47,991 nt of DNA from an uncultured Halobacteriales archaeon (GTDB lineage: Archaea; Halobacteriota; Halobacteria; Halobacteriales; Haloarculaceae), in NCBI GenBank assembly GCA_964459695.1, contig CAYWNQ010000001.1, positions 1 through 47,991 of the forward strand, given 5' to 3'. The translations under genes were made by a program, and so were the position numbers. The notes beneath the pieces were generated by a model. That model was not told the origin of the DNA. It did not search any database and was given only the letters and a program-made list of their open reading frames with translations. Positions 4,969-25,520 of the stretch are shown here, piece by piece (position 1 is the first letter of the stretch; each line of letters starts with the position of its first letter).

Positions 4969-5213
4969 CCGTCCGCCGTACCCCCGGAAGTCGTCGGTGG
5001 CTGTCACTGGTCCGGCGTCGGGACGGCGGGGCCTTGAGTGGGGTGTTTGGGGCAGGCGGGACCCGCTTTCACGTGTCGGCCCTCCGGGTGGGTGGACCTG
5101 CAAGGGGGTGGGTCAGTCCCCCTCCACCGAGCAGTTCACGTTCTCGGCCGAGAACCACGGTGGGACGGCGGCCGTCTCGGGTGGAGTGAACGGGTATCGG
5201 GGAGCCCGCAGTT

Positions 5214-5237
5214 CTGTATAGCGACATAGAGTTTACA
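5214..5237. repeat. left terminal inverted repeat (ctgtatagcgacatagagtttaca)
   Basis: Its reverse complement tgtaaactctatgtcgctatacag matches 8025-8048 (tataaactgtatatcgctatatca) at 18 of the first 21 positions by hand alignment. It lies 61 nt beyond the integrase stop codon. Confidence 0.6.
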
Positions 5238-5298
5238 CGGGGCTGGCTGTTCCGAAATCCGCCCTCCAGAAAGCGACACAATTCTGCCGAAAACGCCC

Positions 5299-7296: not shown

Positions 7297-7998
7297 ATGA
7301 CAGCGGACTCGGAGGAGCCGTACACGTTCGACGACGTGAGCGTCGTCATGGGGACGTACGACGAGGAGGCGGCCGTCGGCTCTGTGCTGGCCGACGTCGA
7401 CCACGTCACCGACGGCCGCGCGGAGGTGGTCTGCGTCGACGGGTCCTCGGACAGGACCCCCGAGATCGCCCGCGAGCACGGCGCACGCGTCGTCGAGCAG
7501 GAGCCCCGGGGGTACGGGGTCGCCGTGAGCCGGGCGCTGCACGAGGCGTCGCGTCCCGTGGTCGTCACCACCGACTGCGACGACACCTATCCGATGGAGG
7601 CGCTGCCGCGGTTCCTCGAACGGATCAACGAGGGGTACGACGTCGTCAGCGGCGACCGGCTCTACCACGGTGCCGACGCAATGCCGTCGGCCAACCGCGT
7701 CGGCAACGCCGCGTTCGCTCTCCTGGCCTCGGTGCTGCTGGGCGAACGGGTCCACGACACCACGACCGGCATGCGTGCCTACCGGCGCGAGGTCGTCGAG
7801 TCCATCGAGTGGACCGAGAACACCGGGCTCTCCGCCGAGTTGCTCATCAGGCCACTGGCCCGGGGGTTCGACGTCGTCGAGGAGCCCATCGACTACCGCG
7901 AGCGGGCCGGGGAGACCACCCTGGATCCGCTGGCGGGCGGCGCTGCAATCGCCACCTCCATCGTCCGGGTGTGCGTCGAGGAACAGTTGGGTTCATGA
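7297..7998 (+). CDS. GT2 glycosyltransferase (Dpm1 / polyprenyl-phosphate-sugar synthase-like)
   Basis: VSVVMGTYDEEAAVGSVL..VVCVDGSSDRTPEIA..VVTTDCDDTYP..VVSGDR..TTGMRAYRR are GT-A/GT2 signatures with a DxD-type motif. The start is taken at ATG 7297 inside ORF 7258-7998. Confidence 0.85.
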   Translation: MTADSEEPYTFDDVSVVMGTYDEEAAVGSVLADVDHVTDGRAEVVCVDGSSDRTPEIAREHGARVVEQEPRGYGVAVSRALHEASRPVVVTTDCDDTYPMEALPRFLERINEGYDVVSGDRLYHGADAMPSANRVGNAAFALLASVLLGERVHDTTTGMRAYRREVVESIEWTENTGLSAELLIRPLARGFDVVEEPIDYRERAGETTLDPLAGGAAIATSIVRVCVEEQLGS

Positions 7999-8024
7999 CA
8001 GGAATCCTCTGGAGAGAAGCTAGC

Positions 8025-8048
8025 TATAAACTGTATATCGCTATATCA
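8025..8048. repeat. right terminal inverted repeat (tataaactgtatatcgctatatca)
   Basis: Partner of 5214-5237. It begins 26 nt after the GT2 stop codon and contains the near-palindrome tatatcgctata. Confidence 0.6.
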
Positions 8049-8207
8049 AATCGGTTCCCGTGCGGGACCAGAGAATCGCAGTATGGAATGCTACAAATCA
8101 GACGCTGACTGACAGGTCTCTGGACGCCCTGTCACGACGGCCCCAAGCCAGTTTGTCTGAGGTCGTCCGTGCTAACATATTTCCTCGATGCCGGGGTCAA
8201 GGAAGGT

Positions 8208-8789
8208 ATGGCAGACGTGGAAGACCTGCGGAAACGGCTCCTCGGACAGCGGTTCTACGACAAGCAGGAGGACGAGGCCTTCACCGTGGTCGGCGTCACC
8301 AGCCAGCCGCCGCTCGCCCTCCTCCAGTACGACGACGGCGTCGGGTGGGACGAGGCGGCGTCGAACTTCACTGTCGATGAGGACACCGCCCGGAAGGCGG
8401 GACTCGACGAGCACGGACTGGACTCCGAGCGGTACCACCAGCTTGGGCCGGGGCCGCGCATCGACCATACCTGCGACCTCGATGAACACAACTGGTTCCC
8501 GCGGCCGGACGACCTCTGGCAGGACGTCCCTTCGGGCGACCAGCGCAAACAAACCCCCGGCCATCCCCGGGACTTCTACAACCGGATTGCGCGGTGCAAG
8601 CGGTGCGGGCTCTCCGGGAGCGTCGCCGGCCAATTCGGAAACTACGGGGCAAAGGGTCACCATCAGACGCCGTGGTTCTGCCACGAGTGCAGCGACGTCC
8701 TCCCCGGGCACGAACTCCGCTACGTCGGTGACGTGGCTCACTGTCCCGAGTGCGCCGCCGCAAAAGAGGAGGGACGGGACGGCGAGTGA
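8208..8789 (+). CDS. hypothetical protein with C-terminal Cys-pair (zinc-ribbon-like) motifs
   Basis: MADVEDLRKRLLGQRFYDKQEDEAF.. is acidic with good GC3. The Cys pairs are CKRCG..CHEC..CPEC. A TATA-like gctaacatatttcc lies ~28 nt upstream. I recognise no family. Confidence 0.6.
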   Translation: MADVEDLRKRLLGQRFYDKQEDEAFTVVGVTSQPPLALLQYDDGVGWDEAASNFTVDEDTARKAGLDEHGLDSERYHQLGPGPRIDHTCDLDEHNWFPRPDDLWQDVPSGDQRKQTPGHPRDFYNRIARCKRCGLSGSVAGQFGNYGAKGHHQTPWFCHECSDVLPGHELRYVGDVAHCPECAAAKEEGRDGE

Positions 8790-8887
8790 GACGCAGGACG
8801 GGGGCACGGCCGCCCGCCACGCGCCCGAAGCTACTTCAGGGACGACTGCAACAGGACGCGTCGATTTCCGACACGTTCGAACCGTGG

Positions 8888-9400
8888 GTGACCGACCGGG
8901 GCGAGATCGCCCACCGGAACGAGACCGGCGAGTGCGTGTGCGGCGGCGACGACCTCGGCCTGCTCGGCCGGTTCCACGATTACGACTGGTGCGGGGAGTG
9001 CGACCGTGAGTACGTCTGGCAAGATGGGGAGGCCGTCCATCCCGAGGAGATCCTTGCTACCGACCGCGAGAGACTCGTCCACGCCAGCGAGGAGTGGGAG
9101 GCGTTCAAACCTCCTATGCGAGTACGACAAAACGTTCCGCGACCACATCAAGTTCGGCGCGACGGCCGACGACGAGGCTGGCTGTGAGCGCACGACAGTC
9201 TCTACATCGGCTACCTGCTGTACAAGTGGGACACGCTCCCACAACTCCTCGTCGTTCACGGCTACCGCGAGCAGGGCCACGGCACTCGGTTCGTTGAGAA
9301 GCGGTTCGACCGCCTCGGCGAGGAGGAGATTGAGGTGATGAGTTTTGATGAACGGGAGTCGTTCTACCGCGAGCCGGACGTCCCGTTCGCGAACGTCTAA
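8888..9400 (+). pseudogene. disrupted CDS of unknown function (two compensating frameshifts plus an in-frame TGA)
   Basis: The coding-like frame (GC3, acidic) runs in frame 2 from ~8888 (..TDRGEIAHRNETGECVCGGDDLGLLGRFHDYDWCGECDREYVWQDGEAVHPEEILATDRERLVHASEEWEAF). It switches to frame 0 over ~9108-9195 (CEYDKTFRDHIKFGATADDEAGCERTT). It then returns to frame 2 (HDSLYIGYLLYKWDTLPQLLVVHGYREQGHGTRFVEKRFDRLGEEEIEVMSFDERESFYREPDVPFANV*, stop 9398-9400). In frame 2 a TGA lies at 9185-9187. Confidence 0.4.
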
Positions 9401-9656
9401 CTGCGTAGCACTGAATGCTCTCGCGGTTCGTGAACCGTGTCGGCGTTCGGTGGTCACCGCCCCGACGTTCGAGCCGCGGGAACCCGCCGGAGTTGCCCGG
9501 TATGCACACTATCTCCGTCAGAATCCCCACAGACGTCCACAACGGTGTTAAACGGGGACGACTTGCCGTCCACAGCCTTCGAGTTCGGTTGACACGGGAA
9601 GGGCGCGACCCGCCATCTGGGGCGCTCTTTTCACCGCCGGGGAGATATGGTAGACT

Positions 9657-9890
9657 GTGGATAGAAGATCATTTCTGAGGAACACCACCGCCGTCGCGGC
9701 TTTCGGTGTCGGAATGAGCGGCTATCTCGACACCGGCGGCGAGAAGGAGAACCCAACTCCGAACGGAGGTGGCACCAACCGTGCGGACGTACCGACCGGT
9801 CGACACGAAGCGGGTGCCTCTGACCCGACAGGTGGCCCGTACCCCACGCAAGGTCGAGTTATCCCGTACCGGCGGGCGCGAAACGGGTGA
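9657..9890 (+). CDS. orphan 77-aa ORF starting with a twin-arginine (Tat) signal; possibly a gene remnant
   Basis: (GTG)MDRRSFLRNTTAVAAFGVGMSGYLDTGG.. is a canonical haloarchaeal Tat leader. A Gly/Pro-rich low-complexity tail follows. Low-GC codons (aga aga tca ttt) are atypical for this window. Confidence 0.35.
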   Translation: MDRRSFLRNTTAVAAFGVGMSGYLDTGGEKENPTPNGGGTNRADVPTGRHEAGASDPTGGPYPTQGRVIPYRRARNG

Positions 9891-9953
9891 AACGGACGGA
9901 ACTGTCGGTGCTCGTTATTACCCCTCCACCGCAACCGACGGTACTTCGATTCC

Positions 9954-11015
9954 ATGCCATCGGGATTGCCGGATTCCACCCGAACGCTACTGGTCGTCGT
10001 GACGGTCGCGGTCGTGGTCTCGATGGTCGCTGGCGTGGCCAGCGCGGCCCCGGACGAGACGGGTGCAGTCGCCTCCCCCGACGGGACGCTCCCCGACGAG
10101 GGGGCTCTCCCGCCCATGGACGTCCCGTTCGGACCCGTCGCCGGCGCCGGAACCGGATCGGAGGCCGGCGACGCGGGGCCAGGGTCACCCGTCGAGGCCG
10201 GCCAGACGGGGTGGGCACCACCGGTCGGGCCGGATCGGACGACGGCGGCGTCACCCGAACCGCAGCCACCGGTCCAGCAGCTACCGACCGGCCGAGTGAC
10301 CCTCGACGTTCCCCGGACGGAGGCCGTCGACCACGGGACCCCGTGGCTCTCCGGGACGAACGACGGGGGTCGGCTGGCCGGCCACGCAGGCGACGGCCGG
10401 CCGGGACCGCGCGCGCTGGCGTGGTTCCTCACCGGTCTCACCGCGCTGCTCGCGGACGCCGCGGGCGTCATCGGCACTGTCGCGGCGGTCGCGGAGGCGG
10501 CCGTGACGACGGTTCCGGTCGTCGCCGGGCTCCTGGATGCGGCCATCGGAGTCGCCGGCATCCTGTCGGGACTGCTCGTGCACGCGCTGTATCGCGACCT
10601 CGCGGCGAGTCCGAGTGGACTGACCGCGGCCGTCCGACAGCTCCCGTTCGCGGACCTGGACGCCGGTCGCCGACTGGGAGCGTGGGCCTGGTGGCTGCCC
10701 GGCGGTGCCAGGGCCGCGGCATCTCGCGGGGAGGACGAGCCGGGGGCAACGAACGGGCCCGACGTCGACAAGGGGAGCGACGAACTCGTGCCCGACAGCC
10801 TCGTCGTTCAGCGGATACTGGAGTCGAACGAGGGCCGCCTGAAGCAGGGCGCCATCGTCGAAGCGACGGGGTGGTCCAAGTCGAAGGTCAGCCGGCGCCT
10901 GTCCCGGATGGCAGACGACGGCCGTATCGTGAAGGTCAGACTCGGGCGCGAGAACCTCATCTGTCTGGACGGGGCCGAGCCGGACGTCGTCTCGGGAGGA
11001 CCGACACCGGCGTGA
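9954..11015 (+). CDS. membrane-tethered winged-helix (MarR/ArsR-like) transcriptional regulator
   Basis: The N-terminal TM/signal anchor is TLLVVVTVAVVVSMVAGVASA. A ~130-aa Pro/Gly-rich segment and two further hydrophobic helices follow. The C-terminal wHTH reads VVQRILESNEGRLKQGAIVEATGWSKSKVSRRLSRMADDGRIVKVRLGRENLICL. Confidence 0.75.
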   Translation: MPSGLPDSTRTLLVVVTVAVVVSMVAGVASAAPDETGAVASPDGTLPDEGALPPMDVPFGPVAGAGTGSEAGDAGPGSPVEAGQTGWAPPVGPDRTTAASPEPQPPVQQLPTGRVTLDVPRTEAVDHGTPWLSGTNDGGRLAGHAGDGRPGPRALAWFLTGLTALLADAAGVIGTVAAVAEAAVTTVPVVAGLLDAAIGVAGILSGLLVHALYRDLAASPSGLTAAVRQLPFADLDAGRRLGAWAWWLPGGARAAASRGEDEPGATNGPDVDKGSDELVPDSLVVQRILESNEGRLKQGAIVEATGWSKSKVSRRLSRMADDGRIVKVRLGRENLICLDGAEPDVVSGGPTPA

Positions 11016-11248
11016 CCACGGCTTCGGTGTCCGGGGGTCGGATCCGTCACGGTGGCGGCGGTCTCGCGTCCTCGAACTGGGCGTCCGGGTGCAGTCGCGG
11101 CGTGGTCGTAGAACCTCCCGGCCGGTGCGGTGGTCAGATCCCGGACCGCCCCTGTCCCCGCGGGTGTACTCCGGCCGAAATCGACCGCCGACGGAGTGTC
11201 GTTCGTCGGAGGTGGGGCGGGCGTCCCGGCCGCGGAACGGCCACGCGA

Positions 11249-11307
11249 GAAACGGTTTCGTCGACCGTTTCACCCCGAAACGTCCCCCAACGGTGCGCAA
11301 CGGTTTC
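11249..11307. promoter_or_regulatory. cluster of GAAAC/GTTTC pentamers (operator-like) upstream of the glycosylation operon
   Basis: gaaac at 11249-53, gtttc at 11255-59, gtttc at 11267-71, gaaac at 11277-81 and gtttc at 11303-07. aacggt recurs at 11251, 11289 and 11299. All lie 55-115 nt upstream of the ATG at 11363. Confidence 0.4.
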
Positions 11308-11362
11308 GCCGATTGATGGACTGGTCCGGTCAACGGGCGGGTGCCTCGATCGGGCACGAACC

Positions 11363-12157
11363 ATGACAGCACAACGGACACACGCGGACGAACGCACCGA
11401 TGCTACCGGGGTCTCCGTCGTGATCCCCACGTACAACGAGCGGGAGAACGTCGCGCCGATGGTGCGGTCGTGTCGTCGCGCACTCGCGGAGTACGACGCG
11501 GAGGTCATCGTGGTCGACGACGACAGCCCCGACGGGACGTGGCGGCGCGTCGACCGGGAGTTCGGCGACGCGGACGACGTGCGACTCGTACGCCGGGTCG
11601 ACGACCAGGGACTCGCGACCGCGGTCGTCGAGGGGTTCGACGCGTCGCGCAACGAGCACCTCGGCGTCATCGACGGCGACTTCCAGCACCCGCCGGACCG
11701 GCTCCCGGACCTCGTCGACGCCCTGCAGACGTTCCGGGCCGACGTCGCCGTGGGCAGTCGCTACCTGGCTCACGGCGGGATCGAGGAGTGGTCCTCCGGG
11801 CGCAAGGCCCTGAGTTACGGCGCGACGCTGATGACCCGAACGCTCGTCCCCGACGCGAGACGCCTGTCGGACCCGCTGAGCGGGTTCTTCGCCGTTCGGC
11901 GGGACCTCGTCGACGACGTCTCGCTGTCGCCGACCGGGTACAAGATCCTGCTCGAGATCCTCACGGAGTGCTCCGTCGACCGGATCGCCGAGGTCCCGTT
12001 CACGTTCTCGGACCGGGACAGCGGGGAGTCCAAGGCGACCGTCGACGAGTACGCCAAGTTCCTCAACCACCTCGTCTCGTGTTCGTACCGCACCCGTATC
12101 CACGACGACGGCCGCCCCGCCGACCCCGTGGCGCTGACCCCCGAGTTCGAACGATGA
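11363..12157 (+). CDS. GT2 polyprenyl/dolichyl-phosphate hexose synthase (GtrB/Dpm1/AglD-like)
   Basis: VSVVIPTYNERENV..VIVVDDDSPDGT..VIDGDFQHPP..AVGSRY..LSDPLSGFFAVRR..GYKILLE is the classical Dpm1/GtrB block order. The start is ATG 11363, in frame within the artefactual 756-aa ORF 9887-12157. Confidence 0.9.
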   Translation: MTAQRTHADERTDATGVSVVIPTYNERENVAPMVRSCRRALAEYDAEVIVVDDDSPDGTWRRVDREFGDADDVRLVRRVDDQGLATAVVEGFDASRNEHLGVIDGDFQHPPDRLPDLVDALQTFRADVAVGSRYLAHGGIEEWSSGRKALSYGATLMTRTLVPDARRLSDPLSGFFAVRRDLVDDVSLSPTGYKILLEILTECSVDRIAEVPFTFSDRDSGESKATVDEYAKFLNHLVSCSYRTRIHDDGRPADPVALTPEFER

Positions 12158-12293
12158 GCCGGGGAACGCGGGCCGCCGACGGGTTCGACGCACGCCCGAT
12201 CCGGTGCCCGTTGCGTTGCCGGTCCCGCGCGCGCTCTCGCCGGGGCCGAACCGATGTCGCCGGTCGGCGGTCGGTCGAGGGGTGTCGACGTCG

Positions 12294-13316
12294 ATGAGCG
12301 TCGCGATGTGCCCGCACCTCTCGGTCGAGCACTACCGGGGCGGCGAGAAGTGGACCGTCATGGTGGCGAACAGGCTGGCCGCCGACGGCGTCGACGTCGA
12401 CGTCCGGGCGCTCCCCTACGCGCCCGGGGGGACGCGCCGCGTCTCGGCTACGGACGTGCTCCACGACGCCGTCAGCTACCGTGAGGCGTGGCGCCACGAC
12501 CTCTCCGGGTACGACGTCTCCTACGTGTTCTACAACCCCCTCTCGGAGGCGTTCTTCGGCGGCGACACCTACCGGATCGCGGGGATCCACTCGTGGGCGT
12601 ACGTGACGGACCGGCTCTTCGAGTCCCACTACGGCGCCGTCCCCACCCTGGTCAAGGCCCTCTACTGGACGTTCGGCGACCGCGAACTCGGCCGGTTCGA
12701 CGCCGTCCACACCTGCACCGGGGCGTTCGACTCCCCGAACGAGAACACCGTCCACATCCCCAACTACGTCGACGCCGACCGCTACCACCCCGACGCCGCC
12801 GAGACCGGAGACGAGTTCACCGTCCTGGTCACGGCGGCCCGCATCAGGGAGAAGGGCTGGGACCGCGTCCGGGCGACGGCGGCCGAGCTCGGCGAGGAGG
12901 ACGTCCGGGTGGTCGCCACCGGCAGCGCGGACGACGGAGCGACCGGCTCCCGTCCCGTCGAGGACCTCGGGTTCCTCGAGGAGGCGGAGCTCGCGGCGTG
13001 GTACGCCCGCGCCCACGCCGTGTTGCATCCGACGCGGGTCGACGCCGACAGCATCGTGATGAAGGAATCGCTGGCCGCCGGGACGCCGGTGGTCACCACG
13101 TCGCTTCCCACCCACCGGGCCCACGCCGACCGGCCCGCGATCCTGTTCGGCGACTCGGTGGACGAACTCGCCGACGGGATACGCCGACTCCGTCGCGAGT
13201 GGGGCCGCTCGACCCGGTACGCCGACAGGGCCCGGTCGGCTCGCGACCTCGGCGAGCGATACGACGAGTCGGTCGTGTTTCCCCGGCTCAAGGCACTCCT
13301 GACCCGCGATACATGA
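12294..13316 (+). CDS. GT-B fold glycosyltransferase (GT4-like)
   Basis: MSVAMCPHLSVEHYRGGEKWTVMVANRL.. The C-terminal part has the GT4 pattern (FLEEAELAAWYARAHAVLHPTRVDADSIVMKESLAAGTPVV). The stop overlaps the next start (ATGA at 13313-13316). Confidence 0.8.
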   Translation: MSVAMCPHLSVEHYRGGEKWTVMVANRLAADGVDVDVRALPYAPGGTRRVSATDVLHDAVSYREAWRHDLSGYDVSYVFYNPLSEAFFGGDTYRIAGIHSWAYVTDRLFESHYGAVPTLVKALYWTFGDRELGRFDAVHTCTGAFDSPNENTVHIPNYVDADRYHPDAAETGDEFTVLVTAARIREKGWDRVRATAAELGEEDVRVVATGSADDGATGSRPVEDLGFLEEAELAAWYARAHAVLHPTRVDADSIVMKESLAAGTPVVTTSLPTHRAHADRPAILFGDSVDELADGIRRLRREWGRSTRYADRARSARDLGERYDESVVFPRLKALLTRDT

Positions 13317-15778
13317 GTACGCTCGCGCCGAACCGGCACGACGCTCGCGTCAGGCGCTTCGCCCAGTACGTGGTGGTTGGCGCGGTCGGAATTGCCATCA
13401 ACGAGGGGACGCTGTTCCTCTCGACGGCGTACCTCGGCGTCTCCTACGTCGGCGGTGGCGCCCTGGGTCGCGTCCTGAGCGTCCTGTTCAACTACGTCGT
13501 CAACGACCAGTGGACGTGGGGGAGTCACGGGGACGGCGGGGCGGGCCGGTGGGTACTCCGCGGCGGGAAGTACGTCGCGACCCGGCTGGTCGGGATGGCC
13601 ATCGGGCTGACGACGCTCGTGGTACTCGTCGAGTTCGGGGGCGTCCACTACCTCCTCGCGAACCTCGTCGCCATCGGGGCCGGCGTCGCCTGGGGGTTCC
13701 TCGCGAGCGAGCTCTGGGTCTGGGGTGCCCACGAGTCGAGCGACCTCGACGTCGCGGCGGTCCGGCGCCGCGCGGCCTCGGTCCTGTCGCGGGTCGACAC
13801 CAACACCTGGATCGTCCTCCTGGTCTCGCTCGCGCTCTTCGTCGTCCTCTCGGCGTACACCGTCTCCCTGTTCCGGAGTTTCTGGTCGACCGGGGCCGAC
13901 CTGGGTGCGTACGTGCACGCGTTCGCGACGACGCTCGACGGGTCGGGGTTCCTCCAGCAGGGCAAGTACCGGGTCAACCACCCGGGCGGCTCCTACTGGG
14001 GCGCTCACTTCTCGCTGACCGTCCTCGGATTCCTGGTCCCCTTCGCCGTCCACCAGTCGCCGGTGACGCTGCTCGTCGTGAAGTCGTTCGTCATCGCGGC
14101 GGGCGTGCCGGTGTTCTGGCTGGTCGCCCGCGACCACGTCGAGAGCGACAACGTCGCGGTCCTGCTGACCGTGTCCTACGCGCTCAACCCGTTCCTGTGG
14201 ACGGCCGCCATCTACGACTTCCAGGAGCAGATCCTCCTGCCGGTCCTCGTCATCGGCGCCTACTACGCCTACCGGAAGGAACGATACCTCCCCTTCCTGG
14301 GGCTGTTCGCGCTCGCGCTGCTGACGAACGAGTTCGTAATCTACGTCGCGGCGGGCTTCCTCGGCGGCCTCGCCGTCGCCGGCCTCCGGACGGGGCGCCT
14401 GCGGGAGGAGGCGACGGTCTTCGCCGCCGCGGGCGGGCTCCTGGTGGCCACGAAGGCGCTGGCGACCTACGTGATCGGACGGTACAGCCGGTTCTCGGGG
14501 ATCCCGACCGACCGCCTGGCCGACCCGATCGTCGCTGCCGTCGCGGGCGACGGGGCGACCCCGGTCCGCATCCCCCTGACCGACGTCCTCGCCACGCTGC
14601 TCGGCGAACCCCTGCTGGCGGTGGACTCGTTGCTGATCAACTGGGAGCTCAAGCTCCTGTTCTTCGGCCTGCTCGGGCTCCCGGTGATGTACCTGCCGCT
14701 CGCCGACGAACCGGCGGTGGGTGCGCTCGTTCCGTACCTCGGGCTCGCCTGGATACTGGCGGACAACCCGGCGTACTACCACTTCGGCGCCCACTACTCG
14801 CTGTACGTCCTCCCGTTCCTCTACGTCGGCGCCGCACGGAGCTTCGGATGGGTGAGCAGCCGGATCTCCCGGCAGCGGATGGCGAGTCTCACCACCGGCG
14901 CCGTCGGCGTCTGCATCGTGGCGACGCTGGTCGGCGGCGTGCTCGTGACCGGCCTGGGATACCAGATGGTCCCGGCCAACGACGACCACACGGAGACGCT
15001 CGAGGAGGCGATCGACGCCGTCCCGGAAAACGCCTCGCTGGTGACCCAGAACACGGTCTACCCCCACGTCGCGACCCGGCCGAACGCGACGTTCGTCATG
15101 GACGACGAGTACTTCGAGCGGTACCAGCGACGGTACGGGGAGGTGCAGCCCCGGTACATCCTGATCGACACGAGACTGGACACCCGCCCGAAGGACTGGG
15201 CCCTGCCGGTCCACCAGGCCTACAGCGACGAGTTCGGCGACGAGTACGGCCTGTACCGGTACCAGGACGGGATCTTCGTCTTCAAGCGCGGCTACGACGG
15301 GCCCACGACGGGGATCACGAGAGCGGAGTACACCGTCGACACGCGCCGATACCGCCCCTCCCGGTCGGTGATCGCGGGCATCGACTTCGACGACGTCGCG
15401 GCCGACGAGCCGCGGAACGCCGAGAACGTCACCTGGAAGGGGCCGTGGACGATCGACCACGCGACGCTCCCGCCCGGGACGTACACCGCGACCTTCAGGG
15501 TGAACGCGACCGCCCCGGACGGGACCGGGACGACCGACCGCCGACCGCCAGGGTCGACGCCGACCCGGCAGTCGGCCGGGTCGCAGTACGTCGGCGTCTC
15601 CAGCGCCGACGAGGGGTTGGTCGCGACGCGGGCGGTCAACCGGACCGGGACCTGGACGAACGTCACGGTCGCGTTCACGCTGGACCGGAGCGGCGTCGTC
15701 GACTTCCACGGCTTCGAGGCCGGGGACCGGTCGATCCGGGTCGAGTGGATCGAGGTCCGGGAGGTGCGCGTGTCGTGA
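13313..15778 (+). CDS. fusion protein: GtrA-like domain + DUF2079-type polytopic membrane domain (putative GT-C-like transferase) + C-terminal soluble domain
   Basis: Residues ~10-135 are GtrA-like (RFAQYVVVGAVGIAINEGTLFL..NYVVNDQWTWG..VHYLLANLVAIGAGVAWGFLASELWVWG). Residues ~150-600 show the DUF2079 pattern (GADLGAYVHAF..GAHFSLTVL..YDFQEQILLPVLV..LLTNEF). The C-terminal ~220 aa are hydrophilic with six N-x-S/T sequons. The start is ATG 13313, in frame in ORF 12488-15778. Confidence 0.85.
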   Translation: MSTLAPNRHDARVRRFAQYVVVGAVGIAINEGTLFLSTAYLGVSYVGGGALGRVLSVLFNYVVNDQWTWGSHGDGGAGRWVLRGGKYVATRLVGMAIGLTTLVVLVEFGGVHYLLANLVAIGAGVAWGFLASELWVWGAHESSDLDVAAVRRRAASVLSRVDTNTWIVLLVSLALFVVLSAYTVSLFRSFWSTGADLGAYVHAFATTLDGSGFLQQGKYRVNHPGGSYWGAHFSLTVLGFLVPFAVHQSPVTLLVVKSFVIAAGVPVFWLVARDHVESDNVAVLLTVSYALNPFLWTAAIYDFQEQILLPVLVIGAYYAYRKERYLPFLGLFALALLTNEFVIYVAAGFLGGLAVAGLRTGRLREEATVFAAAGGLLVATKALATYVIGRYSRFSGIPTDRLADPIVAAVAGDGATPVRIPLTDVLATLLGEPLLAVDSLLINWELKLLFFGLLGLPVMYLPLADEPAVGALVPYLGLAWILADNPAYYHFGAHYSLYVLPFLYVGAARSFGWVSSRISRQRMASLTTGAVGVCIVATLVGGVLVTGLGYQMVPANDDHTETLEEAIDAVPENASLVTQNTVYPHVATRPNATFVMDDEYFERYQRRYGEVQPRYILIDTRLDTRPKDWALPVHQAYSDEFGDEYGLYRYQDGIFVFKRGYDGPTTGITRAEYTVDTRRYRPSRSVIAGIDFDDVAADEPRNAENVTWKGPWTIDHATLPPGTYTATFRVNATAPDGTGTTDRRPPGSTPTRQSAGSQYVGVSSADEGLVATRAVNRTGTWTNVTVAFTLDRSGVVDFHGFEAGDRSIRVEWIEVREVRVS

Positions 15779-17151
15779 AAGCGCTGCTGGTCACCGTCGA
15801 CGCCTGGCGGTTCGACCACGCCGACTTCCTGCCCGACGGGACGGCGGTGGAGACGACGCCGCGCCTGGACGCGTTCGCCGAGGACGCCGTCGCCTTCTCG
15901 CAGGCGGTGAGCCACGGCCCGGCGACCCCCTACGCGTTTCCCGGCGTGTTCACCTCGACGCTGCCGCTGGACCACGGCGGGTACGAGACGCTCGGCGACG
16001 ACAGGACGCTCGTGACCGAGGCGCTCGCCGACGCGGGGTGGCGGTGTGCCGGCTTCCACGCGAACCCGTGGCTGGGCGAGCAGTACGGCTACGCCCGGGG
16101 CTACGAGACCTACCGGGACACCGGCGAGTTCGGTCTGCCCCTCCTCGACCGCGGGCGGACCGCCCTCATCGACCGGTTCGGGCTCGACCACCCGGTCTAC
16201 CGGACGGCCAGGCGCGTCTACCGGCACGCCCAGAAACCGCTGCGCCGGCTCACCTCCGAGGGCGGGTCGGCGGCGAGTTCGGCCCTCGGGACGGTCCGGT
16301 CGATGGACGACGAGGCGTTCGCCTGGGTGCACCTGCTCGCCCCGCACGCGCCCTACGACCCGCCCGCTCGCCACCGCGAGGCCGTGGGCGCGCCGTCGCT
16401 CGACGCCGCGGCGTCGACGCTGGTGACGAGGGCCCAGCGCGACCCCGGCGCGCTGGACCGGGCCGAGCGGACCGCGGTCGAGGCGCTCTACGCGGCCGCG
16501 GTCCGTCACGCCGACGAACAGGTCGGCGACCTGCTCGACGCGGTGGACGACGACGCGCTCGTGGTGGTGACCGCCGACCACGGGGAGGCGCTGTTCGACC
16601 ACGGGCAGGTCGGTCACGACCCGGCGCTGTACGACGAACTCCTCCGGGTGCCGCTGCTGGTCCGTCCGCCGGCCGGGACCGACCGCCGCGTCGTCGACTC
16701 GCAGGTCCGCCACGTCGACCTCGCGCCGACGATCCTCGACTACGCGGGCGTCCCGTCGCCCGACTCGTGGCGGGGGCGCTCGCTCCGCCCGTTCCTGGTC
16801 GGGGAGTGGGGGACCGACGACGGCGGGCGCCCGGCGGTCAGCGAGGTCGCGTCGACGAAGCAGACCCCCGGGCGCGTCGACGCCGATGCCCTCCAGGTCG
16901 CCGTCCGGACACCCCGCCGGAAACTCGTCGCCGACGACGACATCGTGGGCGGGGCCGACGTCGTCGGCTTCGACCTGCGGACCGACCCGGTCGAGTCCGA
17001 CCCGATCCCGGACCCCGCGGGCGCCCGCTGGGACGACCTGCGGGACAGGCTCGACCGCCGGCTCGAGGCCGTCTCGTTCGACGGTCCGGAGGTGGACCGG
17101 CGCGACGCGGCCGTCCGGGACCGCCTCGAGGACCTCGGCTACCTCGACTGA
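15775..17151 (+). CDS. sulfatase-family (alkaline-phosphatase superfamily) protein lacking an obvious formylglycine motif
   Basis: (GTG)KALLVTVDAWRFDH..SHGPATPYAFPGVFTS..VVVTADHGEALFDHGQVGH..HVDLAPTILDYAG matches the sulfatase/phosphotransferase block order. The GTGA start/stop overlap with the upstream gene lies at 15775-15778. Confidence 0.85.
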   Translation: MKALLVTVDAWRFDHADFLPDGTAVETTPRLDAFAEDAVAFSQAVSHGPATPYAFPGVFTSTLPLDHGGYETLGDDRTLVTEALADAGWRCAGFHANPWLGEQYGYARGYETYRDTGEFGLPLLDRGRTALIDRFGLDHPVYRTARRVYRHAQKPLRRLTSEGGSAASSALGTVRSMDDEAFAWVHLLAPHAPYDPPARHREAVGAPSLDAAASTLVTRAQRDPGALDRAERTAVEALYAAAVRHADEQVGDLLDAVDDDALVVVTADHGEALFDHGQVGHDPALYDELLRVPLLVRPPAGTDRRVVDSQVRHVDLAPTILDYAGVPSPDSWRGRSLRPFLVGEWGTDDGGRPAVSEVASTKQTPGRVDADALQVAVRTPRRKLVADDDIVGGADVVGFDLRTDPVESDPIPDPAGARWDDLRDRLDRRLEAVSFDGPEVDRRDAAVRDRLEDLGYLD

Positions 17152-17652
17152 GTGGACCGCATCGAGCCCCGGGAAGGGCCGCCGTCCCGGACCTCGACCG
17201 CGGTCGGGGCGGCGCCGCCGCCAGGCCGGACCTGGTCGTCGGTCAGCAGCTCCTCGACGGTCATGTAGACGACCTCCTCGTCGGCCCCGGCGAGGAAGTC
17301 CAGGACGCGGTCGGTGACGGCCGACTGCTCGGTGACGGTCCAGACGCCGCGCTGCTCGGTCCGGCGGGTCCCGGTCTCCGGCTCCTCCAGAGCGCGGCGC
17401 AACTGCGTCGCCCGGTGGGTGAACTCCCGGGGGGCGACTGGCGGACGTCGACCAGCCCTTGCTCGCGGAGCTCGTCGACGGCGTCGTACACCCGGGTCCG
17501 GGGGACCTCGGACACGCGCGCCACGTCGCGTGCCGTACCGGTGTCGAGCCCGACGAGCGTCACGAACGTGCCTGCGGCGTAGCTGCTCGGGCCGAACTCC
17601 TCGAGCTGGGTCACGGCCTCGTCGCCGGGGTCTCCGGGGCTTCGTCCGTCAT
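17139..17652 (-). pseudogene. TrmB-family regulator paralog, twice frameshifted and C-terminally truncated
   Basis: Three successive reverse frames carry the homology. The first is MTDEAPE.. (ATG comp. 17650-17652). The second is DEAVTQLEEFGPSSYAAGTFVTLVGLDTGTARDVARVSEVPRTRVYDAVDELREQGLVDVRQSPP. The third is REFTHRATQLRRALEEPETG..VWTVTEQSAVTDRVLDFLAGADEEVVYMTVEELLTDDQV. This is collinear with the intact TrmB at 17950-18750. The shifts fall in the C/G runs 17625-17630 and 17426-17434. The sugar-binding C-terminal half is absent, and the 3' end overlaps the sulfatase-like gene by 13 nt. Confidence 0.7.
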
Positions 17653-17949
17653 CTGGCTCCCTCGAACCCGGCCACGCGGGGTGACCGGACCGGGCGCGCA
17701 GCGATTGTGGTTGGGACACAAAGGTGACTGCGCGCCGGAAACCGGTAGGAGGCGGGCTGATATAACATTTTTGTGATGAACCGAGTTACAGCCGTGCCGG
17801 CGGCTGACAGCGCCGGCACCCGTGCGGTGGCGAGGACGGCGACGGTGTTATCGGTTTCGTGACGACCCTGGTGCGGTGACAACGCCTATGAGTTCCGGGA
17901 CCGTCTGTGGTCGCAGCTCCGGACCCGTTCCGGACGCAGGTTGGGACAC

Positions 17950-18750
17950 ATGAGCACGGACGAAACACTCGAAGACGCCGTCGAGACCCTCCAGCAGCTG
18001 GGCCTCAAGGAGTACGAGTCCAGGTGCTTCGTGGGGCTCTCCCGGCTCTCGACGGCCACTGCCAAGGAGCTCAGCGAGGTGACCGACGTGCCGCGGACCC
18101 GCGTCTATGACGCCATCAGGGTCCTGGAGGCCGAGGGGCTGGTCGAGGTCCAGCACTCCAGCCCCCAGAAGTTCCGTGCGGTCCCGCTCGACGAAGCGCT
18201 CTCGACCTTCCGGGCCAGCTACGAGACGCGGGTGGACCGCCTCCGGGCCACGCTCGAGGGCATCGACACCCTGGAGGGCCGCGACGACGCGTCCGCCCAG
18301 GAGGTGTGGGCGATCGCCGACGAGCGGGCCATCGCCAACCGGACGGCCGAGCTCATCGCCGACGCCGAGGAGGAGGTCGTGCTGGTCGTCGGCGACGACT
18401 CGCTGGTGACCGACGAACTCCTGAGACAGCTCCGGGCGGTCGACGACGGCGTGACGCTCCTCGTCGGGACGTACAGCTCCACCATCAGCGACCACGTCGA
18501 GTCCGAGGTCCCCCACGCGACCACGTTCGTCTCGGGGCTGGAGTGGCTGGAGTCGGGTGACCCCGCCGAACAGGTGGCCGTCGGTCGACTGCTGCTGGTC
18601 GACCGCTCGACCATCCTCCTGAGCTCCATCGTCGGCGACACCAAGCGCGAACAGGCGGTGTTCGGCACCGGGTTCGGCAACGGCCTCGTGGTCATCGCCC
18701 GGCGGCTGATGGCCCAGGGACTCGACGGGATCCGGGACCCGTCGGACTGA
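17950..18750 (+). CDS. TrmB-family sugar-responsive transcriptional regulator (full length)
   Basis: The N-terminal wHTH is MSTDETLEDAVETLQQLGLKEYESRCFVGLSRLSTATAKELSEVTDVPRTRVYDAIRVLEAEGLVEVQHSSPQKFRAVP. A coiled linker and the C-terminal TrmB effector domain follow. The start is ATG 17950 (the track begins at TTG 17941). Confidence 0.9.
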   Translation: MSTDETLEDAVETLQQLGLKEYESRCFVGLSRLSTATAKELSEVTDVPRTRVYDAIRVLEAEGLVEVQHSSPQKFRAVPLDEALSTFRASYETRVDRLRATLEGIDTLEGRDDASAQEVWAIADERAIANRTAELIADAEEEVVLVVGDDSLVTDELLRQLRAVDDGVTLLVGTYSSTISDHVESEVPHATTFVSGLEWLESGDPAEQVAVGRLLLVDRSTILLSSIVGDTKREQAVFGTGFGNGLVVIARRLMAQGLDGIRDPSD

Positions 18751-18766: not shown

Positions 18767-19906
18767 CTACGACCGCGCGGGATACCAGGCCAGCCGGTGG
18801 TCGGCAACCAGCTCCACGTCGACCGGCCGACCGACCGGGAACTCGTCGGCGTGGTTGTGCATGCAGTGGAGCACGTCGCCGGTCTCGAGTTCGGCCCGGT
18901 AGACGAACGACGGGCCCGAGTACTGGCGGTGGACGATCTCGCCGTCGGCCCCGTCGCCGCTCGCGGGGACGACCCGGAGGTCGTCGGGCCGGACGAGCAC
19001 GTCCACGCGCGCGCCCTCGTAGGCGTGGAGGTCGCCGGCGATCTGGGCGTGGTCGATGGGGCCGACGCCGGTCTCGACGTGGTCGTCCCAGACGTAGCCC
19101 GAGAGGAAGCCAGCCTGGCCGAGGAACGACGCGACGAACCGCGACTCGGGGTGCTGGAACACCGTCGTCGGCTCGCCGACCTGCTCGATGTGGCCCTCGG
19201 ACATCACCGCCACCCGGTCGCTGATGGACAGCGCCTCCTCCTGGTCGTGGGTGACCGAGACGGCGGTGACGCCGGCCTCCTTGAGGATGGCGCGGACCTC
19301 CTCGCGCATCTCCACGCGCAGCCGGACGTCGAGGTTCGAGAACGGCTCGTCGAGCAGGAGGACCGCCGGTTCGGGCGCCAGCGCCCGCGCGAGCGCGACC
19401 CGCTGCTGCTGGCCGCCACTGAGCTGGTCCGGGCGGCGGTCCCGGTGGGAATCCAGCCCGACGAGGTCGAGCAGGTCGTCGACCCGCCCGGCCCGCGTCT
19501 CGGCGTCGGCGTCGCCCAGCCCGAAGCCGACGTTCTCGGCGACGGACATGTGGGGGAACAGCGCGAAGTCCTGGAACACGATGCCGACGTCGCGGTCCTC
19601 GGGCTCGCGGAACCGCCCGTCGCCGGCGACGGTCTCGCCACCGACGGCGACCGTACCCTCGGTGGGTCGCTCGAGGCCGGCCAGCAGCCGGAGGGTGGTG
19701 GTCTTCCCGCAGCCCGACGGCCCCAGGAGGGTCAGCAGCTCGCCCTCGTAGACGGAGAGCGACAGGCCCTCGACGGCGGTCTCCGGGCCGTACTCCTTCG
19801 TGACGCCGTCGAGGCCCAGGACGACGTCGCCCGCCGGCGGCTCGTCGGCGCCGCCGCTCTCGACGGACTCCGGCTCCTCCTCGGGGACTGCGTGGGTCTC
19901 AGCCAT
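18767..19906 (-). CDS. ABC transporter ATP-binding protein (FbpC/PotA/MalK-type with a C-terminal TOBE-like domain)
   Basis: Walker A is GPSGCGKTT, the Q-loop FQDFALFPHM, the signature LSGGQQQRVALARAL, Walker B LLLDEPFSNLD and the H-loop VTHDQEEA. Confidence 0.92.
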   Translation of the reverse strand: MAETHAVPEEEPESVESGGADEPPAGDVVLGLDGVTKEYGPETAVEGLSLSVYEGELLTLLGPSGCGKTTTLRLLAGLERPTEGTVAVGGETVAGDGRFREPEDRDVGIVFQDFALFPHMSVAENVGFGLGDADAETRAGRVDDLLDLVGLDSHRDRRPDQLSGGQQQRVALARALAPEPAVLLLDEPFSNLDVRLRVEMREEVRAILKEAGVTAVSVTHDQEEALSISDRVAVMSEGHIEQVGEPTTVFQHPESRFVASFLGQAGFLSGYVWDDHVETGVGPIDHAQIAGDLHAYEGARVDVLVRPDDLRVVPASGDGADGEIVHRQYSGPSFVYRAELETGDVLHCMHNHADEFPVGRPVDVELVADHRLAWYPARS

Positions 19907-20603: not shown

Positions 20604-22619
20604 TTAGGGGTTGGGTTCGCGGGCCGACAGCGCCGTCCGGACGAACACCCCCTCGGGGGCGGTCGCCGGGACGTGGGTCGCGGCCCCGCCACAGGCCCGG
20701 ACGTTCCGGCAGCGCTCGACGCGGGGCGACAGCGCCCGGACCGTCCCGTCGCCGGCCCGGACCGGGAGGTCGAACCGGTAGGCGAAGCCGCCACCGCCCG
20801 CGTAGTCGACGAAGACCGTCAGCCGGACCGTGTCCCGGCCGTCGACGGCGAGCGTCCGGTCGCCCACCGGCCGGACGTCGCCCGAGGCCCGGACCGACGA
20901 GGCGGTGACGTCGAGGTCGACGGCGACCTCGTCGGTGACGTTCGGCGCCACGTAGTAGGCGCTCCCGTCGTCGGTCGCGACGCGGAGGGTGACGCCGACG
21001 GCGCCGTCGGGGACGCCGACGGTGGTCGCCAGCCGGACCCGCTCGCCGGTGACGTCCCGGATACGCTGGAGCCGGGCGGCGTCCGGGGAGCCGGCGGCCG
21101 GTGCCCAGACACCCCGGTAGCCGTAGCGGTACAGCCGGCGGTCCGGGAACGCGTCGGCGACGGCGAACGGTCGGTCGTGGAGGGCGTAGACGGCCCGGCC
21201 GTCGTAGCCGGGGTCGTTGCGGAGCTCCTGGAACGGGTGGTTGAGCCAGTCGCCGTAGGGGTCGGGCACGAGGACGACCGAGTCCGCCGGCGGTCCGCCC
21301 GCGAACGGCTCGTAGGCGTCCTCGTAGGTGCGTGTCACCGCCATGTTCTCGTCGACCCGCCGGTCGAGGTCGGTGGCGGTGACGGCCCCGACGGCGCAGG
21401 TGCCCGACACGAGCACCACCGCCAGCGCCACCCTGGCGTGGCGGCGATCGAGCCGGGTGTCGAGGGCGCGGCGGGCGGAGTCGGCGAGCCAGAGCGCCCC
21501 CGTCGCGGCGAACACCGCCGTCGGGACCAGGAGGTCGAAGTGGTAGTAGGGCCCGAACGCCGCGACCAGCCCGTCGCCGGCGGCGTCGAGATCGCCCAGG
21601 ATATTGTAGTTTCCCCAGAACAGCAGGTTGCCGGCGGGAACGGTGACGAACAGGCCGGCCAGCGCCGCCGTCCGGTCGTCCAACCCGCGACGGACCGCGA
21701 GGCCGAGCCCCACCGCCGCGAGCAGGGTCCCGAGGACGCCACCCGCCACCCACTCGGTGAACAGCAGTTCGAGCACCGCCCGGTTGGCACGGAGCGCCAG
21801 CTCGGGCGTGTAGTCGACCCCGTGGCCCAGCAGCGCCCGGTGGCCGAAGCCGATGCCGTCGCGGGGCCCGAACGCCCGGTAGGGGAACAGCCAGGCCGAC
21901 CCCGTCACGACGGCGTTGTACCCCAGCGCGACGCCGACGCCGGCCAGCCCCACCGCCGCCGTCACCGCCTGCCGGGGCAGCACCGTCCGCGGCGCCCGTG
22001 CGATCGTCCAGCACGCGTGGGCGACGAACGGCGACGCGAACAGGACGGCGGTGAACGGCCGCGCGAAGAACGCCAGCCCGGCCCCGGCGCCGGCCACCGC
22101 CGCCCACCGGCGGTCGTCGGTCCGGTCGGCCCGGAGGTAGCCGTACGCGAAGACGAGGTTCAGCAGCGTGGTCGGCGCGTACGGTAGGAACACCGACGAG
22201 TCGACGAGGAACAGCGGCGACGCGAGCACGAACGCGCCGGCGAGCAGGCCGGTCCGGCGGTCGAACAGCGCCCGGCCGACGCCGACGACCAGCGCGACGT
22301 TCGCCGCGGCGATGCCGACCAGCGCCAGCCGGTAGCCGCCGGCGAGCCGCCCGAGCGCGAACATCGCGGCGGGGACGGGCGCGTACTTCGGATAGAGCCG
22401 GTCGCCGGCATCGACGAAGAACCACGGCCGGAACGCGTCCTCCAGCGGCGGCCGGAGGGAAAACTGGCCCTCCAGGAGCATCGCGGCCTGCTGGAGGTAC
22501 ACCGCCTCGTCGTGGTTCGCCGAGTGGTACGGGAACACCTGGGTCGCGACGACCCAGACGGTGACCGCGCCGGCGACCGACAGCGCGGCGGTCGCGACCC
22601 GGTACGTCCGGCGCTCCAT
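20604..22619 (-). CDS. GT-C fold glycosyltransferase (ArnT/PMT, GT39/GT83-like) polytopic membrane protein
   Basis: 671 aa with at least 10 hydrophobic helices. An acidic first-loop motif (HSANHDEAVYLQQAAML) is typical of lipid-phosphate-sugar-dependent GT-C enzymes. The C-terminal ~250 aa are soluble. Confidence 0.8.
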   Translation of the reverse strand: MERRTYRVATAALSVAGAVTVWVVATQVFPYHSANHDEAVYLQQAAMLLEGQFSLRPPLEDAFRPWFFVDAGDRLYPKYAPVPAAMFALGRLAGGYRLALVGIAAANVALVVGVGRALFDRRTGLLAGAFVLASPLFLVDSSVFLPYAPTTLLNLVFAYGYLRADRTDDRRWAAVAGAGAGLAFFARPFTAVLFASPFVAHACWTIARAPRTVLPRQAVTAAVGLAGVGVALGYNAVVTGSAWLFPYRAFGPRDGIGFGHRALLGHGVDYTPELALRANRAVLELLFTEWVAGGVLGTLLAAVGLGLAVRRGLDDRTAALAGLFVTVPAGNLLFWGNYNILGDLDAAGDGLVAAFGPYYHFDLLVPTAVFAATGALWLADSARRALDTRLDRRHARVALAVVLVSGTCAVGAVTATDLDRRVDENMAVTRTYEDAYEPFAGGPPADSVVLVPDPYGDWLNHPFQELRNDPGYDGRAVYALHDRPFAVADAFPDRRLYRYGYRGVWAPAAGSPDAARLQRIRDVTGERVRLATTVGVPDGAVGVTLRVATDDGSAYYVAPNVTDEVAVDLDVTASSVRASGDVRPVGDRTLAVDGRDTVRLTVFVDYAGGGGFAYRFDLPVRAGDGTVRALSPRVERCRNVRACGGAATHVPATAPEGVFVRTALSAREPNP

Positions 22620-24343: not shown

Positions 24344-24346
24344 GCC

Positions 24347-25516: not shown

Positions 25517-25520
25517 TGTT

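Follow-up and report, generated by a model that had tools for sequence, protein, structure and literature searches.

The window considered here is a stretch of 47,991 nucleotides from an uncultured Halobacteriales archaeon of the Haloarculaceae (assembly GCA_964459695.1, contig CAYWNQ010000001.1), with a haloarchaeal GC content of about 71%. At positions 11363-17151 it carries a cassette of four co-directional genes, encoding a GT2 glycosyltransferase, a GT4 glycosyltransferase, a large membrane fusion protein and a sulfatase-like protein. We consider it probable (about 0.62) that this cassette is a haloarchaeal accessory and fused form of the three-component systems, made of a GT-A synthase, a GtrA-family protein and a GT-C glycosyltransferase, that glycosylate surface polymers outside the cell. 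An earlier note on this DNA had recognized the logic of gtrB, gtrA and GT-C genes in it, and all three classes were confirmed by profile hidden Markov models (HMMs), by matches to the Protein Data Bank (PDB) and by fold comparison. Its assignments to the GT2, GT4, GtrA, DUF2079 and Sulfatase families were likewise borne out by the Pfam profiles. The genes, and the domains of the fusion protein, are as follows (aa, amino acids; DPMS, dolichyl-phosphate mannose synthase; CBM, carbohydrate-binding module):

11363-12157, plus strand: GT2 gene, 264 aa, Pfam PF00535 Glycos_transf_2 at 4.4e-32
12294 or 12306 to 13316, plus strand: GT4 gene, 340 or 336 aa, Glyco_trans_1_4 at 1.8e-10 and Glycos_transf_1 at 2.3e-07
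13313-15778, plus strand: fusion gene, 821 aa, with a GtrA/DPMS membrane domain, DUF2079, an extracytoplasmic alpha/beta domain and a CBM-like beta-sandwich
13364-13723, plus strand: GtrA/DPMS-type four-helix domain, residues 18-137 of the fusion protein, PF04138 GtrA_DPMS_TM at 9.7e-21
13877-15277, plus strand: DUF2079 module, residues 189-655, PF09852 at 2.8e-44
15410-15775, plus strand: C-terminal CBM-like beta-sandwich, residues ~700-821, from Foldseek
15775-17151, plus strand: sulfatase-like gene, 458 aa, PF00884 Sulfatase at 2e-31

The translational couplings described previously are present at the positions given for them: the stop of the GT4 gene overlaps the start of the fusion gene by 4 bp (ATGA, 13313-13316), and the stop of the latter overlaps the GTG start of the sulfatase-like gene, also by 4 bp (GTGA, 15775-15778). 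Loci L001, L003 and L004, which are homologous and come from three other genera, have identical overlaps, so that these are conserved and not due to chance. The start of the GT4 gene is ambiguous, the options being a GTG at 12204 (open) and the ATG codons at 12294 and 12306.

The GT2 protein and the GtrA domain

The best PDB match of the GT2 protein is the DPMS of Pyrococcus furiosus (PfDPMS; 5mlz), with an E-value of 1e-56, 195 bits and 42% identity over 222 columns, the alignment covering catalytic residues 2-221 in native numbering. The next-best match reaches 52 bits, and the other GT2 protein of the window (7258-7998) obtains only 58 bits against 5mlz. Type-III DPMS have been defined by a catalytic and a four-helix membrane domain in one chain, and by the motifs and residues DADxQHPP, SRY, R131, S135 and KIL (PMC12992685). 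At the aligned positions the cassette protein has DGDFQHPP, GSRY, R131, S135 and YKIL, with a single change, from A to G, at the second position of the first motif, and the residues that bind dolichyl phosphate (Dol-P), R117, R131, S135 and K178, are conserved. It has no membrane helix and ends at residue 264, where the four-helix membrane domain of PfDPMS would start; it is thus not a single-polypeptide enzyme of this type, the membrane domain being encoded in the third gene of the cassette. The GT2 orthologs are named 'polyprenol monophosphomannose synthase' by NCBI, while the top NCBIfam match is AglJ, well under its cutoff (6.6e-18; 65 vs 325 bits). The earlier proposal of a GtrB/Dpm1-type polyprenyl-phosphate sugar synthase, the GT-A component of a three-component system, is upheld by the match to PfDPMS and the conserved Dol-P-binding residues. 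Judging from the sequence, the protein is probably a dolichyl-phosphate hexose synthase, and mannose is the likely sugar.

The N-terminus of the fusion protein is a true GtrA/DPMS membrane domain, as the earlier note had supposed. PF04138 aligns over its full profile (1-117 of 117), the isolated domain matches the membrane domain of PfDPMS with an E-value of 5e-06 and 31% identity, and a profile of the fusion family matches residues 250-372 of PfDPMS (chain numbering) at 1e-08. In the AlphaFold2 (AF2) model, the domain, which has the four helices of the GtrA family, superposes on 5mlz with a root mean square deviation of 1.9 Å over 131 residues (Foldseek). In the alignment, two asparagines, N30 and N60, fall on N248 and N277 of the polar pocket of PfDPMS, and both are invariant in 17 of 17 fused homologs. 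A role as flippase for Dol-P-mannose has been proposed for the DPMS membrane domain (PMC12992685).

The closest relatives of the GT2 protein (50-56% identity) are of two kinds, short GT2-only orthologs from other cassettes and GT2::GtrA fusions of 372-449 aa from Halopelagius, Halorhabdus, Halospeciosus and Halobium, the latter encoded in contexts unrelated to the cassette and lacking DUF2079. Since both kinds are interleaved, a DPMS-type enzyme appears to have been split, and sequence comparison thus indicates that the cassette GT2 and the GtrA domain are the two halves of one such enzyme. A search with the GtrA domain also returned GtrA::PMT_2, GtrA::GT87 and GT2::GtrA proteins and one combining GT2, GtrA, GT87 and GH99. 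GtrA has thus repeatedly been joined in one chain with either the synthase or the enzyme that consumes the lipid-linked sugar (Rosetta-stone links), and given these several fusion types, GtrA::DUF2079 is not a unique architecture. The protein with four domains, P0126 (1201 aa), holds Glycos_transf_2, GtrA, GT87/PIG-M (GT-C) and GH99 in one polypeptide, uniting all three components of the system with a glycoside hydrolase. Proteins of 392-409 aa from the mesophilic haloarchaea Halopelagius, Halorhabdus, Halospeciosus and Halobium (P0371, P0395, P0406 and P0421; loci L033 and L034) are full-length GT2::GtrA fusions that, compared by domain architecture, resemble type-III DPMS, which PMC12992685 concludes to be a hyperthermophile trait.

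The DUF2079 module, the accessory enzymes and the spread of the cassette

The AF2 model of the 821-aa fusion protein has a pLDDT of 83.2 and a pTM of 0.78. Leaving aside PfDPMS, which matches the N-terminal domain, the best Foldseek matches of the model in the PDB are GT-C enzymes: STT3 (2.4e-06), PglB (9e-06) and ArnT (2.4e-05), and further DPY19, EmbB, ALG12, AftA, ALG9 and Pmt4, all with a probability of 1.00 and E-values from 2e-06 to 5e-03. DUF2079 therefore models as a GT-C glycosyltransferase fold, in agreement with the GT-C-like transferase that had been suspected, and it is a polytopic protein with an acidic residue in what would be the first outer loop. Residues D196, H232, F303/Q304/E305, T338/N339/E340, H494/Y495, Q579/N580, H585 and D619 are invariant in the 38 DUF2079 sequences compared, and D302 and D465/E466 are conserved in 37 of them. 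D196 belongs to the motif G-A-D-x-G-x-Y, directly after the first GT-C membrane helix. From the model, D196, D302-E305, T338-E340, H494/Y495 and the C-terminal domain would lie on the outer face of the membrane, and D465/E466 in a short loop on the inner side. The protein has six N-x-S/T sequons, all of them within residues 554-821, which is consistent with an outward-facing C-terminal domain. The last ~120 residues form a beta-sandwich, for which Foldseek finds the beta-sandwich of the arabinanase EndoMA1 (2.7e-03), CBM4 and CBM35 (0.015-0.05); these weak matches hint that the acceptor could be a glycan, and the CBM-like domain is predicted to lie outside the cell.

The GT4 protein scores above the Pfam gathering thresholds with Glyco_trans_1_4 (41.7 bits, cutoff 27) and Glycos_transf_1 (31 bits, cutoff 26.4), an assignment to GT4 (GT-B, Glycos_transf_1) that is made on the Pfam score. 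It shows weak similarity to glycolipid GT4 enzymes in NCBIfam (5e-4 to 5e-3), and no match was found in the PDB by sequence. It is predicted to be a cytoplasmic GT-B glycosyltransferase.

The sulfatase fold recognized previously in the fourth protein was recovered, but its identity as a formylglycine sulfatase was not. The AF2 model (pLDDT 90.5) has S1 sulfatases and phosphonate monoester hydrolases as its top Foldseek matches (E-value 1e-23, TM-score around 0.65) and shares with them the two-domain fold, with an alkaline-phosphatase-type alpha/beta core followed by a C-terminal subdomain, and the Asp/His metal site (D9, D268, H269 and H281). It differs in that the C/S-x-P-x-R formylglycine motif is replaced by H-G-P-[A/S]-T51-P-Y-A-F-P in 19 of 19 orthologs, the second Asp of the usual sulfatase DD pair is an Ala, and there is no export signal. 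T51, D9, D268, H269, H276 and H281 are invariant in the 19 orthologs, and Thr51 is also kept in relatives with 28-37% identity. The ortholog group is sharply bounded, with at least 51% identity within it and at most 35% to the next relatives. No signal peptide was found in any of the 19 orthologs, so that the enzyme should be cytoplasmic. Members of the alkaline-phosphatase superfamily with a Thr nucleophile are typically phosphoryl-transfer enzymes, and the Thr motif of the cassette protein resembles that of LtaS/EptA-type phosphotransferases. That identity was nevertheless rejected, as the fold search places the protein among S1 sulfatases and phosphonate monoester hydrolases, and it lacks a membrane anchor. 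The enzyme may act on phosphoryl or sulfuryl groups, either by transfer or by hydrolysis.

The distribution of the cassette was surveyed by lookups and a scan of GTDB, which brought up 28 loci outside the window that have a DUF2079 relative; some of the contigs end early, and the counts are thus lower bounds. At least one further cassette gene was present in 26 of the 28 loci, with these associations:

GT4 gene directly upstream of GtrA/DUF2079: 24 of 28 loci
GtrA, fused or adjacent, with DUF2079: 22 of 28 loci
sulfatase-like gene within 10 kb: 19 of 28 loci
DPMS-type GT2 gene within 10 kb, in variable position: 17 of 28 loci

The core order is GT4, GtrA, DUF2079, usually accompanied by the sulfatase-like and GT2 genes. 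The components are thus co-localised and inherited together, as in three-component systems, and in the window they form an operon with 4-bp overlaps. The hosts are Haladaptatus, Natrarchaeobius, Natrinema, Halomarina (one locus being on a 375-kb replicon), Haloferax, Halegenticoccus, Salinigranum, Salinibaculum and Halococcus, and the flanking genes are different at every locus. The cassette is found in every Halococcus genome recovered, often in two copies, with GtrA as a separate gene of 164 aa; two DUF2079 paralogs exist in Halococcus, Halegenticoccus and Salinigranum. The wall of Halococcus is a sulfated heteropolysaccharide that replaces the S-layer (PMC13321033). Among the Halococcus loci (L005, L011, L014-L019 and L024), each genome has one full locus with GT2, sulfatase-like, GT4, GtrA and two DUF2079 genes, to which an arylsulfotransferase-family gene is added in L005, and a second, minimal locus with GT4 and DUF2079 and no GtrA. 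These minimal loci make GT4 and DUF2079 the most tightly linked pair. The exact cassette proteins were found publicly only on two Logan contigs of 6.2-6.3 kb (L028 and L029, from SRR26668035 and SRR26668033), which span the window from ~11190 to ~17510; the assemblies of both samples break on either side of the cassette, as would fit strain-variable flanks. Overall, the cassette is an accessory trait, probably horizontally acquired and moved between haloarchaeal genera.

The following mechanism can be proposed. The soluble GT2 would charge dolichyl phosphate with a monosaccharide at the cytoplasmic face of the membrane, most likely with mannose from GDP-mannose, as suggested by the 42% identity to PfDPMS and the motifs for Dol-P and metal binding. 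The four-helix GtrA/DPMS domain, which probably also docks the soluble GT2, would take the Dol-P-sugar and bring its head group to the outer leaflet, where the DUF2079 GT-C enzyme, by means of the invariant Asp196 in the first outer loop, would move the sugar onto an extracellular acceptor; the fold of this enzyme is modelled and its chemistry is what we infer from it. The CBM-like sandwich would hold the acceptor, which would thus probably be a glycan polymer, whether a heteropolysaccharide of the wall, an exopolysaccharide or a glycan anchored to a lipid, and not bare protein; the enrichment of the cassette in Halococcus, along with the CBM-like domain, points to such an acceptor. Finally, the strict co-occurrence of the GT4 and the Thr-nucleophile sulfatase-fold enzyme suggests that both may process the acceptor precursor or the donor in the cytoplasm, either by priming a lipid-linked glycan or by attaching or cleaving off a phosphate- or sulfate-ester group.

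Integrase, flanking genes and rival explanations

Upstream of the cassette the window contains the following genes (ORF, open reading frame):

5299-6345, minus strand: tyrosine integrase, Phage_integrase at 4.5e-13, XerA-like below cutoff
6338-6760, minus strand: DUF5805 gene, overlapping the integrase gene by 8 bp
7258-7998, plus strand: dolichyl-phosphate hexose transferase equivalog of the HVO_1613 type, 402 bits with a cutoff of 375
8169-8789, plus strand: orphan ORF
8831-9457, minus strand: orphan ORF
9954-11015, plus strand: DUF7343 winged-helix membrane protein

According to the earlier note, the cassette would be carried by an island with an integrase, either (pro)viral or integrative, as a conversion system similar to phage gtrABC serotype conversion that possibly alters virus receptors. 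The presence of the integrase and DUF5805 genes at 5299-6760, the dips in GC at 6-7 kb and 8-10 kb (62-65%), the match of GT2 to the PHROG family 'GtrB-like O-antigen conversion' (2.6e-26), the absence of the cassette segment from two Halobaculum replicons with shared flanks and the breaks of the Logan contigs in two samples would all agree with this. However, the integrase gene, upstream and on the opposite strand, is separated from the cassette by 5 kb and five ORFs, and the conserved hexose transferase gene stands between it and both the variable segment and the cassette. Two Halobaculum megaplasmids, of H. lipolyticum and H. roseum, share a flank set consisting of the hexose transferase, a GT39/PMT_2 protein, an ABC ATPase, a permease, a binding protein and an RGP-family protein, and lack the cassette; this delimits a variable segment at ~8.1-18.75 kb and leaves the integrase outside it. 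No att-like direct repeats were found between 3 and 24 kb, only chance matches of GC-rich sequence. Comparison of 5200-11300 by blastn with 50,697 phage records gave no match, and the PHROGs yielded no virion families; they matched only the integrase, the GtrB-like family and, over the GtrA domain, a family whose function is unknown. The GC content of the cassette (0.69-0.76) is that of the window and host background, relatives of the window integrase were absent within 10 kb of 27 homologous loci (tblastn, E<0.01, a search that very divergent recombinases would escape), and in Halococcus the cassette looks resident and multi-copy. The arrangement is thus not that of phage-borne gtrABC genes, which lie inside a prophage or integrative element beside an integrase and att sites, and a mobile island of this kind seems highly improbable. 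Neither the linkage to the integrase nor the suggested effect on virus receptors is supported, whereas horizontal mobility as such stays plausible on account of the patchy spread, the varied contexts and the variable segment. As a possible integration target, ARAGORN reports a tRNA-Ala(GGC) of 91 nt at 10443-10533 (plus strand), within the DUF7343 ORF; it was rejected as a false positive, probably arising in GC-rich coding sequence, with no Rfam match at the gathering threshold.

Two other explanations concern the acceptor and the role of the GtrA domain. The cassette might complete an N- or O-linked glycan carried by pilins or by the S-layer glycoprotein, supplying its last sugar from Dol-P as AglD, AglR and AglS do. 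Both share the logic of a Dol-P-sugar made inside and a GT-C-type enzyme acting outside (PMC12992685, on AglS), AglJ is the best NCBIfam match of GT2, if far under the cutoff (65 vs 325 bits), and the strain-specific diversity of haloarchaeal glycans would fit the patchy distribution. Yet all recovered Halococcus carry the cassette, in several copies, while having a heteropolysaccharide wall and no S-layer (PMC13321033); moreover, both the CBM-like domain and the duplication of DUF2079 speak for a polymer as acceptor, and aglB or other agl genes are absent from the window, so that we regard a protein acceptor as unlikely. We are equally doubtful that the GtrA domain serves only as a membrane anchor or Dol-P-presenting platform for GT2, flipping being carried out by another protein or occurring spontaneously and the fusion to DUF2079 serving for co-localisation. 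The membrane domain of PfDPMS does support the isoprenoid chain of the acceptor (PMC12992685), the flippase role of Rv3789 has been challenged, and the cassette GT2 itself contains no membrane segment. But membrane-domain mutants of PfDPMS stay active as synthases and flipped Dol-P-mannose has been seen within the domain (PMC12992685), the two asparagines of the polar pocket are invariant in the cassette homologs, and repeated fusions of GtrA to extracytoplasmic consumers of unrelated GT-C families are hard to explain for a synthase anchor.

We thus favour a three-component system that glycosylates surface polymers, although several points weigh against this proposal. With respect to the GtrA domain, the placement of the gating residue Phe338 of PfDPMS is ambiguous (HMMER aligns it with V125, and a conserved phenylalanine, F129, lies four residues later), and the flippase role of the family is a proposal even in bacteria, challenged in the case of Rv3789. 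The donor sugar of GT2 cannot be read from its sequence; the DPMS-like AepG turned out to be a GlcA transferase (PMC9943897). The topology of the fusion protein comes from a manual reading of hydropathy, of the positive-inside pattern of Arg and Lys and of the model helices, and not from predictor output; the CBM-like matches are weak (0.003-0.05), and no functional or biochemical literature was found on DUF2079, PF09852 or COG3463. The roles given to the GT4 and sulfatase-fold enzymes derive from co-occurrence, and the sulfatase-like gene was not found within 10 kb of two full loci, those of Natrinema (L010) and Salinibaculum (L026).

Some further features of the window were noted. The 347 bp that precede the GT2 gene contain two copies of a 14-nt direct repeat, AACGGTTTCG(T/C)CGA, at 11251-11264 and 11299-11312 (plus strand), 48 bp apart, the first of which overlaps the near-palindrome GAAACGGTTTC. 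The 9-mer of the repeat is not over-represented across the window (7 observed vs 4.3 expected); speculatively, the pair could be a candidate operator or regulator site. Past the cassette, an apparently frameshifted gene for a TrmB-family regulator (17139-17719, minus strand) converges on its end: an ORF of 152 aa with a TrmB helix-turn-helix (17261-17719; 2.1e-12) runs out of frame into another of 87 aa (17139-17402), with a run of six G at ~17430. It could be a pseudogene or reflect a sequencing error, and an intact TrmB gene is located divergently at 17941-18750.

The integrase and DUF5805 pair sits between an MFS transporter gene and the hexose transferase gene and may be the remnant of a separate small integrative element; integrase-like DNA (74-76%) is present on Halomarina and Natrinema plasmids. 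The region 8169-9457 has the lowest GC of the window (62-65%), with overlapping alternative-frame and antisense ORFs alongside. Neither of its two orphan ORFs matched Pfam, NCBIfam or PHROGs, and ~8244-8728 (485 bp) is 78.6% identical to a hypothetical gene on a Halorhabdus tiamatea plasmid. A plasmid origin of the window was considered and rejected, since megablast gave only short matches (ABC ATPase, integrase and one hypothetical gene), which led to the Halobaculum synteny. The window is probably chromosomal, given its housekeeping genes (diphthamide synthesis, citrate synthase, IMPDH and tRNAs). The genes that flank the cassette at 7258-7998 (plus), 18767-19906 (minus), 20604-22619 (minus) and 22721-26808 (minus) form a candidate second pairing of Dol-P-hexose and GT-C functions, comprising the hexose transferase, a GT-C protein with PMT_2 and DUF7846, an ABC transporter and an RGP-family protein ('alpha-1,4-glucan-protein synthase'). 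Finally, a normal tRNA-Lys(CTT) is found at 37349-37423, and a 179-nt Rfam tRNA match at 40782-40960 (plus strand; 43.9 bits), missed by ARAGORN, presumably contains an intron.

Known systems and significance

The cassette resembles the bacterial multi-component systems, namely GtrB-GtrA-Gtr(type) of phage SfX, CsbB/GtlA-GtcA-YfhO/GtlB of Bacillus and Listeria, and ArnC-ArnE/F-ArnT, in that the same three classes are co-encoded and the predicted order is the same, with the lipid charged inside, flipped and the sugar transferred outside (PMC8035078, PMC11127046). It differs from them in being archaeal, so that the carrier is presumably dolichol, in the covalent union of GtrA and GT-C, and in a soluble synthase that lacks the C-terminal helices of GtrB, although a soluble GT-A partnered by a separate small membrane protein is known in GacI/GacJ (PMC8035078). 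Its GT-C enzyme, moreover, comes from the uncharacterised DUF2079 family and bears a CBM-like domain; two further conserved members, the GT4 and the Thr-type sulfatase-fold enzyme, join the set, and there is no prophage link. With the type-III DPMS of P. furiosus (5mlz, 5mm1, 9ep0) it shares the catalytic (42%) and membrane (31%, 1.9 Å) domains, the motifs and the equivalents of N248 and N277, while its two halves are on separate chains, the membrane half being at the N-terminus of a GT-C enzyme, DGDFQHPP stands in place of DADxQHPP, the equivalent of Phe338 is ambiguous and R341 has no clear counterpart.

The AglD/AglR/AglS route of Haloferax volcanii, which adds the final mannose of the N-linked pentasaccharide, is also haloarchaeal, with a Dol-P-hexose made inside and a membrane transferase outside (PMC12992685). 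Set against the cassette by description only, it uses other families at the flippase and probably at the transferase step; no link of the cassette to aglB was found, and its acceptor is more likely a polysaccharide. The machinery for lipoglycans and arabinogalactan of mycobacteria and corynebacteria combines the same elements as the cassette: Ppm1 as polyprenyl-phosphate sugar synthase, PimA/MgtA as cytoplasmic GT4 enzymes for priming, Rv3789 as GtrA protein and PimE/MptA/AftA/Emb as GT-C enzymes that end in carbohydrate-binding domains. Two of these, EmbB and AftA, were matched by the DUF2079 fold, but there is no orthology at the sequence level and the proteins of this machinery are unfused. 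In Haloarcula, Dol-P-GlcA supplies an acidic exopolysaccharide (PMC9943897). Nothing functional was found in the literature on GtrA in haloarchaea.

The three-component logic is textbook knowledge in bacteria, and no new principle is claimed here; what is new is the archaeal setting, the DUF2079 GT-C enzyme, the split and re-fused DPMS, the two conserved accessory enzymes and the enrichment in Halococcus. How Dol-P-monosaccharides cross the membrane is an open question in archaea and eukaryotes, and a structural study of 2026 has proposed the GtrA-like membrane domain of archaeal DPMS as translocator (PMC12992685). In the cassette the GtrA domain is detached from the synthase and joined to the consumer on the outside, and in sister genomes it is found separate or fused to the synthase. 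These alternative arrangements, which rest on sequence comparison, are independent comparative evidence for a hand-off of the lipid-linked sugar across the membrane.

A more ambitious idea, which we put forward very tentatively as it seems rather improbable, is that the cassette is the core machinery of an ester-modified surface heteropolysaccharide of the Halococcus type, transferable to haloarchaea with an S-layer, and works as one machine in which GT2 docked on GtrA channels the Dol-P-sugar into the GT-C enzyme. If this were true, the occurrence of GT2::GtrA vs GtrA::GT-C proteins would be the first genomic proof of the DPMS/GtrA domain as a translocator of Dol-P-monosaccharides, and the Thr-type 'sulfatase' would represent a new kind of ester-transfer enzyme, active in the cytoplasm on sugars linked to lipids. 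Under the three-component reading that we prefer, the cassette offers a compact genetic handle on a first function for a DUF2079 GT-C enzyme and for a Thr-type sulfatase-fold enzyme devoid of formylglycine, and possibly a lead to how haloarchaeal exopolysaccharides or the wall of Halococcus are made.

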